A stretch of DNA of 64,000 nucleotides from Candidatus Poribacteria bacterium. Its GTDB lineage: Bacteria > Poribacteria > WGA-4E > WGA-3G. Below are positions 38,036 to 40,708 of this stretch, piece after piece. Positions within the stretch are counted from its first letter, which is position 1. Each line of letters starts with the position of its first letter. The position numbers and the translations under genes were made by a program. The stretch covers positions 4,414,509 to 4,478,508 of the forward strand of contig OY763324.1 of assembly GCA_963667365.1 (NCBI GenBank), read 5' to 3'. Under the pieces are notes generated by a model. It searched no databases. It was not told the DNA's origin and saw only the letters and a program-made list of their open reading frames with translations.

Positions 38036-38222
38036 TACATGTATACACGTATAAGTGTATAGATGTATACTTGTATATATGTATAAACGCATGCATGCAT
38101 ACTCGTATACATGTATAGATTCATACATGTATAGATGTATAGGTGTATATATGTTTGCACGTATACATGTATACTTGTAGAAATGTTTACCTGTTTACTC
38201 GTATGCATGTATACAGATAAAT
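38036..38222. promoter_or_regulatory. AT-rich tract of about 20 degenerate (A/C)TGTATAC(A/G) repeats: putative DNA-unwinding element / protein-binding array of the replicon origin
   Basis: CATACATGTATACACGTATAAGTGTATAGATGTATACTTGTATATATGTATAAACGCATGCATGCATACTCGTATACATGTATAGATTCATACATGTATAGATGTATAGGTGTATATATG... continues for about 185 bp. It lies 400 bp upstream of the iteron array and the same heptamer family precedes parA. Confidence 0.5.
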
Positions 38223-38631
38223 CTGGATAACGGAAACGAGGGGTAGTTTAGCTGTCAGCAATCAGTCAAGATGTGCGTATATCTTAATCCTGAAAACCGC
38301 ATCCAGATAAACGATACCCTTTCTGCGTCCTCCGTGCCTTCCGTGATTCTGGCGAAAAAGGTTAGTTAATTATTTTTAAGTTCACAGTTACGAATATCCC
38401 TTTTCCTCTCCAACCGAATCTGGTTAAAAGGATCGCAGACTTTTGTATCATAAGAAAAACTCTAAGATTCAAGTAAGGAATTAAAAGAATTCATGTTTAA
38501 ACAACAACTACCAATTATCTCAACTTAAGAGTGAAATGTGTGTCTGCAATTGTTGTTTAACGTTTTATAAGTATTTTTAATGTTTTAAGGGTGCGATGAA
38601 CCCTTACCACGCTTGAGTTCTCAGGTTTTAA

Positions 38632-39229
38632 GGTGTAGGTTTATGGGATGAACGGTGTAGGTTTATGGGAGTAAAGGTGTAGGTTTATGGGATGAACGGT
38701 GTAGGTTTATGGGAGTAAAGGTGTAGGTTTATGGGAAATCTCTAATATTTTCCCCACATTGTCTAATTAAAAATAATTAATTTCAGTGTAAAGGTGGTAG
38801 TATATGGGGTTATAGGTGTAGGTTTATGGGAAAAACTAATTAATGCCGTTGAAACCTTATTCTATCAGCATCTTACGCATACGATAATCGTTTATTTTCT
38901 GTCTAAAGGTGAAATATTGTAGGGAATAAGTGTATATTATCATATATATGATTACACTTTTAGCACCATGTCTTATATCAGCAAAAATCATCTATTTCAG
39001 CCCAAAAAGTGCTGATTTTTTAGGTTTTTCATGTTACTTATATGTCATACTGGTAAAAATCGTTCAAAAGGTGTAGGTTTATGGGAAATATCAAAAAATT
39101 GATCTACCACACCGGTAAAAATCGTTCAAAAGGTGTAGGTTTATGGGAAAGTTTTGTGATGAAAAATATATCGTATCGGTAAAATAGGTCAAAGGGTGTT
39201 AGTTTATGGGAGAAGTGTAGATTTATGGG
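38632..39229. repeat. Iteron array (oriV): about 10 direct copies of GGTGTAGGTTTATGGGA
   Basis: Five perfect copies at 38632, 38654, 38676, 38698 and 38720, exactly 22-bp phased. Further copies at about 38814, 39069 and 39132. Degenerate copies at about 39194 and 39214. Three are embedded in a longer roughly 40-bp repeat CGGTAAAAATCGTTCAAAAGGTGTAGGTTTATGGGAAA. Two copies of AACC(C/T)TATTCTATCAGCATC lie at 38845 and 39245. All are immediately upstream of the rep gene. Confidence 0.85.
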
Positions 39230-39385
39230 ATTAAGGAGACAATGCTATTAGAACCCTATTCTATCAGCATCCTGAGAATATGGACGGCTTCTGTTTTTGT
39301 CTATATATTGGTAATGGTGTAAATACTTGTTGACGAATTAACACCATTATGTTAGACTGTAAACTATAAGAAGGAGACGACTAAA

Positions 39386-40708
39386 ATGCACATCAATGAA
39401 ATAAATGAAGTCATAAAGGCGAGTCCAGCCATCCAAATTCAGAGCAAGATTACGCACTTACAACGTCGTGCGTGGAACGTGTTGCTCGCTAATGCTTACG
39501 AAGAACTGCCCAATAAAGACATCCATCACATCAATGTGATTGACCTTGCACAGAGTCTCGGTTTCAATAGCCATAACATAGACTATCTCAAGGATACGTT
39601 GAAAGCACTTGTCGATTGCACAGTGGAATGGAATATATTGGGGAAGGACAAAAAGAATGGATGGGGTGTTGCTGCACTTTTAGCCTCCGCAGAAATACAT
39701 AACGGAATCTGCACTTACGGTTTCGCACCGCACTTACGCTATAAGCTATACAACCCACGTATCTACACCAAACTGAATCTCCGGTTGCAAAATCAGTTCA
39801 CCAGCAGATACGCACTCGTTTTGTGGGAAGTCTGCTTTGATTACTTCGATATTGCCCGAAATCAAGGAGAAACATCCTTCATTCCAGTCGAAAAGTTTAG
39901 AGAACTGTTGGGACTCGAAAAGGATGAATATCCGGCATTCAAAGAACTCAACCGAAATGTCATCAAACCTGCGATCAAGGAGATTAACGAACTGACGAAC
40001 TTTTATGTTGAGGTGGAAACGAAACGGATCGGACGGCGGATCGGTGAGCTGAAGTTCACAATCTTACGTATGAGAGAGATACCACCGCTTGAACCGAGAC
40101 AAGAAGAGTCTGAACCTGCACAAGCATCACTGTTTGTTGATATGGACAACCTACCGATAATCGCTGTTAAGCTTGTTCAAGCGGGAGTCTCACAAAAAGA
40201 GGCACTCCGGATTGCGAACCAAGAATGGGATTCTGTTGACATTGAGGCACTACCTGCGGATTTAGATGATTTTGCTATGTATGTGGAAGAAAAAATCGGA
40301 CTGGCACGTCATGCCTCGAATGTTCAAAATGCTGGTGGGTTTATCGTCAAAGCGATCCAGGAAAATTATCAAGACGTTGAGTTCCAGAAACAACTTCAGG
40401 AAGAGAAAGAGACAGAGAAACAGGAGATGCTTACGACCCTAAGACGCGAGATGCTGGAAAAGCAAAATGTGTTGATACGGCAAGCCGTCCGCGCCAACCC
40501 AGAATTGCTTGAACAAGCAGCAGAGATGATTACCTCAAGCTTTATCAGAGAGCGATTGATGGATTATGACTCTATAGAAGAGGCTTACGCAGCTGCAGGG
40601 TTGGTCACTGGTGAACTTAACAGCATTCTCGCACAAGAGTTCTGTGCTGATTTGATCGCACCCGTCATCGCTGTCTACGAAGCAGAGAAGGAACGGCTTG
40701 AAGGGTAA
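39386..40708 (+). CDS. rep: Iteron-type plasmid replication initiator protein (Rep_3/RepA-like winged-helix initiator)
   Basis: 440 aa. AGGAG sits 9 nt upstream. The N-terminal half (...YALVLWEVCFDYF...FKELNRNVIKPAIKEINELTNFYVEVETKRIGRRIGELKFTI) has the hallmark pattern of Rep_3-family initiators. The C-terminal half is acidic and helical. It is preceded by its own iterons. Confidence 0.75.
   Translation: MHINEINEVIKASPAIQIQSKITHLQRRAWNVLLANAYEELPNKDIHHINVIDLAQSLGFNSHNIDYLKDTLKALVDCTVEWNILGKDKKNGWGVAALLASAEIHNGICTYGFAPHLRYKLYNPRIYTKLNLRLQNQFTSRYALVLWEVCFDYFDIARNQGETSFIPVEKFRELLGLEKDEYPAFKELNRNVIKPAIKEINELTNFYVEVETKRIGRRIGELKFTILRMREIPPLEPRQEESEPAQASLFVDMDNLPIIAVKLVQAGVSQKEALRIANQEWDSVDIEALPADLDDFAMYVEEKIGLARHASNVQNAGGFIVKAIQENYQDVEFQKQLQEEKETEKQEMLTTLRREMLEKQNVLIRQAVRANPELLEQAAEMITSSFIRERLMDYDSIEEAYAAAGLVTGELNSILAQEFCADLIAPVIAVYEAEKERLEG

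Follow-up and report, generated by a model that had tools for sequence, protein, structure and literature searches.

A Rep_3 iteron replicon in Candidatus Poribacteria, very probably that of a megaplasmid fused into the chromosome

How does a locus with the anatomy of a plasmid replication origin come to lie within a chromosome-size contig of an uncultivated bacterium? The question is raised by a 64,000-nucleotide stretch of a Candidatus Poribacteria genome (GenBank assembly GCA_963667365.1, contig OY763324.1, forward-strand positions 4,414,509 to 4,478,508; hereafter the window), in which an array of short direct repeats (iterons) precedes a gene for a replication-initiator-like protein (Rep). 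A preliminary description of the window had proposed an iteron-type plasmid origin embedded between chromosomal-type genes. The evidence presented here makes it highly probable that the interval from 38.5 to 40.7 kb is the basic replicon of a ~170-kb Poribacteria megaplasmid, and that the plasmid is fused into the ~4.5-Mb chromosome in this genome. The literature searched reports no plasmids of Poribacteria.

The 440-amino-acid (aa) protein encoded at 39386–40708 (+) comprises two winged-helix domains (WH1, aa 9–150; WH2, aa 168–226) and a helical C-terminal extension (aa ~252–440). It is a true Rep_3 initiator, as the preliminary description had suspected; the hidden Markov model search proposed there as a check placed both Rep3_N (1e-15, 58.8 bits against a cut-off of 22.4) and Rep3_C (5e-21, 75 bits against 21.1) above the curated Pfam cut-offs. 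NCBIfam gave sub-threshold matches to RepM and RepE, and the protein also matches phrog_2172 (3e-27). Over aa 7–332 it shares 33–37% identity with annotated replication initiators on 1,578 plasmid records, the closest annotated plasmid proteins being RepB-type initiators of Rhodobacteraceae, Paracoccus and Burkholderia (E ~1e-44 to 1e-50 among the matches listed). The AlphaFold model has a mean predicted local distance difference test (pLDDT) score of 61, with WH2 and the C-terminal helices adequately modelled, and every significant Foldseek match to a PDB fold was RepE of mini-F. The top match was 2z9o, the RepE dimer–operator structure, and WH2 superposes on RepE at 1.6 Å over ~90 columns. 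A profile search against PDB returned a weak match to the R6K pi protein (E = 0.033, WH2 only), and phmmer of Rep against PDB returned nothing. No Pfam or PDB match was found for the C-terminal extension, with Pfam run on the C-terminal 209 aa.

Upstream of rep, the 17-mer GGTGTAGGTTTATGGGA occurs in ten copies between 38632 and 39230, all on the + strand (eight exact, two with two mismatches), with an eleventh, degenerate copy at 38794 and none elsewhere in the 64-kb window (0.16 expected by chance). The first five lie at 22-bp spacing, and both the count and the phasing had been recognized correctly at the outset. Tandem Repeats Finder (TRF) described 38630–38736 (+) as period 22 in 4.9 copies, or as period 44 in 2.4 copies at 100% match; these are the five origin iterons (AAGG-TGTAGG-GTTTATGGGR), with homologous phased arrays in ~35 related loci. 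Repeat analysis placed the degenerate copy and iteron 6 (38815–38831) at 38794–38831 (+). Iterons 7–10 (39070–39230, +), three of them in ~38-bp units 62–63 bp apart and the last two degenerate, are arranged identically in a free-plasmid copy described below (L041) and are candidate copy-control (inc-like) iterons.

On the other side of the phased array lies a leader, defined from an alignment of 38 leaders, which begins with an inverted repeat (AACAACAAC at 38500–38508 and TGTTGTTT at 38551–38558) around a variable ~42-nt segment (38500–38558, +). It continues into a conserved AT-rich segment (TGTTGTTTAAC..TTTTAA repeats; 38549–38590, +), whose placement and sequence are retained by almost every related locus, and then into a conserved GC-richer box, GGGTGC.A..AACCCA..CCAC.CCT..CAG (38591–38629, +), which separates it from the first iteron and is possibly a host-factor site. 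Of all 40-mers in the window, those of the AT-rich segment fall in the bottom 1% for stability; since comparable instability is found in several other segments, we refer to it only as a conserved candidate DNA-unwinding element.

Between the distal iterons and rep, a consensus scan found the promoter TTGACG, 17 nt, TG-n-TAGACT (39330–39358, +), followed by the ribosome-binding site AAGGAG at 39371–39376. A half-iteron, GGTGTAAAT (39316–39324), and its inverted partner, ACACCATTA (39341–39349), bracket the −35 hexamer and form the putative Rep operator (39312–39349, +). The preliminary description had suggested this role for the 20-mer AACCYTATTCTATCAGCATC, of which there are exactly two copies (0 expected), at 38853–38872 (+) and 39252–39271 (+; AACCCTATTCTATCAGCATC). 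We dropped that assignment because the 20-mers are restricted to the nearest clade, in which they separate the last tandem iteron from the promoter, and because they show no co-variation with iteron type. Both copies are part of a ~66-nt duplication (family D6), 399 bp apart, one of them being the product of a local duplication specific to the window.

The same arrangement recurs across Poribacteria. A protein search returned hundreds of Rep relatives (73–84% identity, 433–441 aa), many of them on Mb-size contigs; the one source name among them, and that of all 28 genome loci found later, is Candidatus Poribacteria. The comparison set comprised ~40 related Poribacteria loci. DNA similarity to the window is limited to 38543–38738 and ~39130–40708, its right-hand limit coinciding exactly with the rep stop codon. 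What the loci have in common is a module of four parts: a leader made up of the AACAAC.../TGTTGTT inverted repeat, AT-rich sequence containing TTTTAA repeats, and a box richer in GC; 4–10 iterons of the form AAGG-[6 variable nt]-GTTTATGGGR at 22-bp spacing, upstream of rep in every informative homologous locus; a promoter in which a half-iteron abuts the −35 hexamer with an inverted copy in the spacer (alignment A1); and the rep gene. As far as sampled, this Rep family, with its distinctive C-terminal extension, is restricted to Poribacteria and is often integrated in the chromosome.

Variation within the module points to the same function as its anatomy. The variable block of the iterons differs among lineages (TGTAGG, TGATAG, TGATCG, TGAGAG, CATAGG, TAAGTG, TCGACG, TGGACG and ATGTGTG). 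In an alignment of 24 Reps, those with TGTAGG iterons are told apart from those with TGAT(A/C)G iterons by just two columns, 187 (E/V) and 191 (N/D), both within the WH2 helix FKELNRNV. In each of two close pairs of loci (L001/L035 and L004/L012), the iteron switch is accompanied by an identical set of four substitutions, which argues for parallel change rather than shared ancestry, and CATAGG iterons pair with S187/W191 in four further copies. The inverted half-iteron likewise co-varies with iteron type in 23 aligned promoters, giving the operator pairs GGTGT/ACACC, GTGGAC/GTCCAC, GTCGAC/GTCGAC, ATGTGT/ACACAT and CATGATA/TATCAT. Rep dN/dS is 0.10–0.23 in all pairwise comparisons, and falls to 0.03 when the integrated copy is compared with that of the free plasmid, a single amino acid separating the two. 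Together, the code, the operator co-variation and the selection indicate that Rep recognizes both the iterons and its own operator, and that this recognition is maintained by selection; the co-variation supports cognate Rep–iteron specificity. The PCPOR4 genome holds four Rep copies with four different iteron blocks (including L005, L024 and L026), a pattern that selection against cross-reaction (incompatibility) would yield.

Both Rep and the partition ATPase ParA of the window are on one 4,780,840-bp contig. In another sample (ERZ24894576), a Rep at least 90% identical is encoded on ctg49268c, a 170,038-bp contig flagged as circular by the 'c' suffix that, in metaMDBG contig names, presumably denotes circularity. 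Two stretches of ctg49268c, L041 and L043, align collinearly with the window at 97–99% identity over the ~24 kb compared (32.7–56.8 kb), in the blocks 32689–40708, 41528–43642, 45083–48150, 50812–52330 and 52960–56775. The same contig encodes mates at least 90% identical to the proteins at 54–962, 2554–5517 and 10777–13791, to ParA and its ribbon-helix-helix (RHH) partner, to the capsid-like and portal-like proteins, and to the MjaI enzyme and its methylase. We therefore assign positions 1–56775 to plasmid-derived DNA, from 32.7 to 56.8 kb by DNA collinearity and from 1 to 32.7 kb by protein cluster mates only (54–962 through 55519–56610); the genes around the origin, initially taken as chromosomal in type, belong to this plasmid DNA. 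The free plasmid carries the same ten iterons at near-identical spacing, bar one 1-bp insertion, and compared with the window it shows no substitutions in 38539–38796 and 20 in the 297 bp of 38242–38538.

From 59310 to 64000 the window is instead 99.5% identical to a second circular contig of sample ERZ24894576, the 4,507,661-bp ctg49697c, which runs on into GFO_IDH_MocA genes absent from the window. With a plasmid-like left part and a chromosomal right part, the window crosses a plasmid–chromosome junction within the 4.78-Mb contig, and the sizes agree, 4.51 Mb and 0.17 Mb summing close to 4.78 Mb. Of the possibilities raised in the preliminary description, co-integration into the chromosome stands, with the junction at 56.8–59.3 kb; that of a separate large plasmid or chromid in this genome does not, since the window enters chromosomal DNA at 59310 and is not on a separate smaller circular replicon. 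The data thus support a plasmid co-integrated into a chromosome-size replicon here and present as a free circular form in the sister sample. That form carries the same WD40 genes, as expected of the WD40-rich large plasmid first envisaged. Another circular contig, ctg57816_12x_c (242,241 bp), encodes a Rep 80% identical to that of the window, and the same protein is found on a 242,673-bp contig; free megaplasmids using this replicon appear to exist.

The junction segment itself (56776–59309, 2.5 kb) is present in neither the plasmid nor the chromosome of ERZ24894576, and consists of a low-GC 581-aa open reading frame (ORF) and a ~500-bp IS200/IS605-like miniature element (58816–59309). The 581-aa ORF was compared with a 618-aa ORF of the plasmid and is not homologous to it. 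Hairpins of IS200/IS605 type (CCCCAYGCTTWAGCKTGTGGG) occur at both ends of the miniature element, which has an internal promoter-like TTGACA..TATAAT and whose right end is the exact plasmid/chromosome breakpoint. Its 3' ~100 nt are also found directly downstream of a TnpB gene in L011, and the match in L028 lies just upstream of its Rep; TnpB genes occur near rep, in the same ~20-kb locus, in nine related loci. A tyrosine recombinase gene (53343–54275, −), also on the free plasmid, is ~5 kb from the junction. With tRNA-linked integration in mind, tRNA genes were sought in the window and none were found, and no conjugation genes were seen in the plasmid parts examined.

A linked partition cassette, anticipated from the start, was found at 22.4–23.3 kb. 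The parA gene (22377–22997, +) encodes a 206-aa small Walker-type ATPase that lacks an N-terminal DNA-binding domain (matches to CbiA, AAA_31 and ParA; phrog_164), and is followed by a gene for an 85-aa RHH protein (23002–23259, +; Pfam Antitox_RHH 5.9e-22, with a weak ParG match), a ParG-like centromere-binding protein by class. Directly upstream of parA is an array of nine GTATAC units with 8-bp period (22267–22356, +), the putative operator and equivalent of OF in plasmid TP228. ParA and the RHH protein form a type Ib partition cassette. In 7 of 7 loci with ParA homologues, an 8-bp-period array lies directly upstream, its motif being locus-specific (GCTGGCAT, GCTAACRT, GCATTCAC and CATGTAAA among the homologues); the RHH beta-strand varies with the motif across loci, and L016 and L018 share an identical strand and the same motif. 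Tandem short repeats of the 'TACATTACATTCTGTAT' type occur at 21840–21925 and 23320–23430, within composite intergenic blocks flanking the cassette.

The GTATAC repeat recurs in the tract beside the origin. The preliminary description had noted 185 bp of degenerate TGTATAC heptamers as a likely unwinding element or binding array. The tract exists (TRF 38035–38215, 22.6 copies, 68% match; 70% AT), but its period is 8 bp rather than 7, and we abandoned the unwinding role since it lies outside the module conserved across the Rep family and shares the par operator motif. Eleven further sites between 21.7 and 50.2 kb carry similar GTATAC arrays of 3–9 units with period 8, so the motif is not origin-specific. 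Because it shows the same 8-bp GTATAC repeat as the parA operator, 38035–38220, with ~23 units, is read as a ParG-type centromere array (parH/parC-like). It is best read as a centromere that the RHH protein would bind, given the identity of motif and the layout of L018, where a second copy of that locus's own array lies ~270 bp upstream of the Rep leader, as in the window. Indels of 8 and 16 bp, each a whole number of units, distinguish the free-plasmid array from that of the window. Rfam returned no family at gathering score, and sub-threshold miRNA matches on the GTATAC array are low-complexity artefacts.

A conventional mechanism would account for these parts. Rep monomers would bind the five 22-bp-phased iterons and thereby melt the adjacent AT-rich leader (38549–38590), after which a host helicase and replisome would be loaded for theta replication. 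Rep dimers on the inverted half-iteron over the rep promoter would repress rep, and the irregularly spaced iterons at 38815–39230 would probably titrate or handcuff Rep, limiting copy number. ParA and the RHH protein would segregate the plasmid via the 8-bp-period GTATAC arrays, with 38035–38220 serving as centromere.

Several points weigh against this account. Origin function is deduced from anatomy and conservation, and WH1 is badly modelled by AlphaFold (pLDDT below 50 for residues 1–136). The conserved module contains no DnaA box TTATCCACA, one mismatch allowed, and the motif TTATTATCA, which clusters at the probable chromosomal oriC described below, is absent from all Rep origins examined; many, not all, Rep_3 origins have a DnaA box. 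Initiation may therefore be DnaA-independent, or may use a site that we do not recognize. A promoter-proximal full iteron (~−97), usual in relatives, is missing from both the window and the free plasmid. Genes around the origin are not oriented away from it, and the GC-skew inversion at 38–39 kb, suggested as a check, is absent, cumulative skew falling on both sides (mean −0.072 to the left, −0.087 to the right); the lack of an inversion is uninformative for a mosaic plasmid, yet argues against a main chromosomal origin. As to the plasmid, the window includes just one of the fusion junctions, the 170-kb and 242-kb contigs are taken as circular from the 'c' flag in their names, and ~37 kb of the 170-kb plasmid was readable, leaving room for a second replicon on the remainder.

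Module copies in other genomes show what integration looks like in this phylum. In seven long-read assemblies, one of them a circular 5.96-Mb contig, the module occupies one chromosomal site, in the order ADH, (TnpB), a 154-aa gene, variable cargo, iterons–rep, a 255-aa gene, BNR, a 568-aa gene, TPR, gyrA and gyrB. The relative L034 has a 123-bp empty site in place of the 6.6–10.7 kb of occupied genomes, with dnaA-recF-dciA-gyrB-gyrA just beyond it. The DnaA region of Poribacteria is thus normal and the Rep island an insertion ~13 kb away, a distance to dnaA and the putative oriC that is taken from synteny with L034, as the occupied genomes did not show dnaA itself. Nine exact TTATTATCA/TGATAATAA motifs are packed into ~180 bp of the L034 spacer between dnaA and recF (L034:5369-5718); this is the probable chromosomal oriC, its DnaA box differing from the canonical TTATCCACA. 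Some copies are decaying (L003 without iterons, L029 truncated, L010 shortened), no GC-skew change occurs across the module in 21 related loci, and nothing indicates that integrated modules act as the main origin of the chromosome.

Some copies also show signs of rearrangement. At the chromosomal site where L001 has E/N, L003 (L003:10001-11329) encodes a Rep with the V187/D191 helix, as in plasmid L035, and everything upstream of codon ~5 is replaced, including iterons and promoter, which suggests allelic replacement or rearrangement at an integrated copy. L001, L002, L031 and L033 have identical or near-identical Reps and differing cargo between the 154-aa gene and rep, just ahead of the iterons (e.g., L001:2991-9600, L002:5406-9600), consisting of either HicB with 917-aa and 278-aa genes or Schlafen/AlbA_2-ATPase with XRE-HTH and 149/381-aa genes; the cargo region is a hotspot of rapidly exchanged, defence-like genes joined to the integrated replicon. 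Finally, an identical 433-aa Rep (P0088) occurs twice on one 231,795-bp contig (L036 and L037, 133 kb apart) and on several other contigs (L038-L040) in different gene contexts, pointing to recent duplication or movement of the ori–rep cassette; in L036-L039 a 131–137-aa ORF overlaps the rep stop codon.

Could the window copy then be an auxiliary or domesticated chromosomal origin, integrated modules firing as secondary origins or serving some other chromosomal function? We consider this unlikely. Rep homologues do occur on Mb-size contigs, including the circular 5.96-Mb one, one clade keeps the module at its single chromosomal site ~13 kb from dnaA/putative oriC with dN/dS of ~0.17–0.19, and certain genomes, such as PCPOR4, have multiple copies whose iteron specificities differ. 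Against this stand the normal dnaA-recF-dciA-gyrBA region with its dense box cluster, the empty site in a relative, the lack of a GC-skew change at any locus, the decaying copies and, for the window copy itself, its plain identity as plasmid DNA. A broader proposal, that Poribacteria keep Rep_3–iteron origins alive and in use inside chromosomes, as auxiliary origins or as the engine of reversibly episomal islands, is compatible with the purifying selection, the diversified codes, the multiple copies and the clade fixation near oriC, and we hold it as a speculative, rather improbable idea. If true, an uncultivated phylum of symbionts would have bacterial genomes with several origins or, facultatively, several replicons.

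Fusion as seen in the 4.78-Mb contig could also be an artefact, the plasmid being free here too and the contig joined artificially via a shared repeat. In favour of this are the abundance of near-identical dispersed repeats throughout the genome, the IS200/IS605-like miniature element at the end of the junction and the separateness of the two replicons in the sister sample; a simple repeat-mediated misjoin, however, would not create the 2.5 kb of unique sequence at the join (56776–59309), absent from both sister replicons. As the repeats are far shorter than long reads, the two sister contigs (4,507,661 and 170,038 bp) add up close to 4,780,840 bp and chromosomal integration of this Rep family is seen independently in at least seven other long-read assemblies, we judge a chimera improbable. 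The chance that the locus is instead the replication module of a prophage, phage-plasmid or phage satellite seems slight, even with a portal-like gene (36552–37877, 3e-14) adjoining the origin, a head-like gene (31711–33069, 1e-13), the phrog_2172 match, a nearby integrase and defence-type cargo in Rep-adjacent islands of relatives. None of the ~30 clustered loci has portal- or head-like homologues beside Rep; these recur only in L041, the free copy of the same element, and no relative was found in the viral contig collection IMG/VR. Terminase, tail and lysis genes were not seen, the two capsid-like genes are split by sigma factor and sulfatase genes, and the element is 170 kb long with ParA/RHH partition and many WD40 and metabolic genes. 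Least credible of all, and close to negligible in our estimate, is that the 17-mers are a dispersed repeat family beside a non-initiator winged-helix DNA-binding protein. The window is indeed rich in dispersed repeats, yet the 17-mer, which the preliminary description had named as a potential member of such a family, occurs nowhere else in it, is always rep-linked in relatives and co-varies with Rep residues, and the protein passes both Rep_3 domain cut-offs.

Besides replication and partition genes, the plasmid DNA in the window carries phage-like, restriction and repeat sequences. The portal-like ORF (36552–37877, −; phrog_3753, 3e-14) and the major-head-like ORF (31711–33069, +; phrog_3922, 1e-13) have genes for an extracytoplasmic function (ECF) sigma factor and a sulfatase between them; both ORFs are also on the free plasmid and could represent either the remains of a set of capsid genes or a pair that has been domesticated. 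The plasmid DNA also encodes a restriction-modification enzyme of Type ISP/IIG (24280–27375, +), which matches its profile from position ~730 of 1646 and whose N-terminal nuclease/helicase portion seems to be missing; on the 242-kb plasmid, a homologue of this Type ISP gene immediately precedes rep. An MjaI-type restriction endonuclease and an N4/N6 methylase are paired at 54301–56610 (−). PADLOC, run on window ORFs of unknown function, recognized only the Type ISP/IIG enzyme and a protein with an SNase domain. Intergenic repeats are abundant in window positions 1–57000, with 42 copies of GGGAATCGGAGTTCCCTCCTACAG (36 exact) and 51 of TCTGAATCACGGAAG, almost invariant (e.g., at 1374, 2169, 21924, 23288, 33110 and 41072). 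The two form composite blocks resembling repetitive extragenic palindromes (REP) or miniature inverted-repeat transposable elements (MITE), and a copy abuts each side of ori–rep (38338 and 40716).

Set against known systems, the type of locus is unremarkable: a Rep_3 iteron replicon accompanied by a type Ib par system. What is new is its setting in Poribacteria. Like mini-F (RepE/ori2), R6K (pi/gamma-ori) and pPS10 (RepA), it pairs an initiator of two winged-helix domains with direct-repeat iterons beside an AT-rich region. The iterons of R6K gamma-ori and pPS10 are also spaced 22 bp, and RepE likewise has an inverted partial iteron over the rep promoter, with autorepression. In contrast to these systems, sequence similarity is remote (the PDB profile match cited above is confined to WH2), Rep has a helical C-terminal extension of ~200 aa, no DnaA box is recognizable, and the replicon is that of a 170-kb plasmid in an uncultivated phylum. 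The closest sequence relatives on annotated plasmids, by comparison of the proteins, are RepB-type replicons of Rhodobacteraceae, Paracoccus and Burkholderia, which drive large low-copy plasmids with par loci. They belong to another phylum, and their match reaches the first part of the C-terminal extension, whereas the last ~110 aa are not common to both.

The partition locus recalls ParF-ParG-parH of TP228 in its small ParA followed by an RHH protein, its 8-bp-period operator array upstream of parA and its second, larger array elsewhere. TP228 ParG binds ACTC boxes with 4-bp spacers, in an operator upstream of parFG (OF, 8 boxes) and a separate centromere (parH, 12 boxes) (PMC3130281). Unlike TP228, the window has GTATAC as its box, its large array is 15 kb from the cassette and beside the origin, and further arrays of 3–4 units are spread over 30 kb. 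As with F plasmid/Hfr co-integrates, a low-copy iteron plasmid is free in one population and fused in another, with mobile-element sequence at the junction; in contrast to F, no conjugation genes were seen in the parts examined.

For Poribacteria, a defined replicon, a partition system and a ~170-kb WD40-rich megaplasmid, both free and fused, would constitute the first plasmid biology for the phylum. They offer a starting point for a shuttle vector or mini-replicon in an uncultivated sponge-symbiont lineage and should aid the recognition of plasmid contigs and co-integrates in sponge metagenomes, while warning that chromosome-size contigs in metagenome-assembled genomes of Poribacteria can hold whole integrated plasmids. 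About a dozen Rep–iteron specificities, differing mainly at two WH2 residues and a 6-nt block, amount to a natural recognition code, and this series may be useful in studies of initiator–DNA specificity and plasmid incompatibility.

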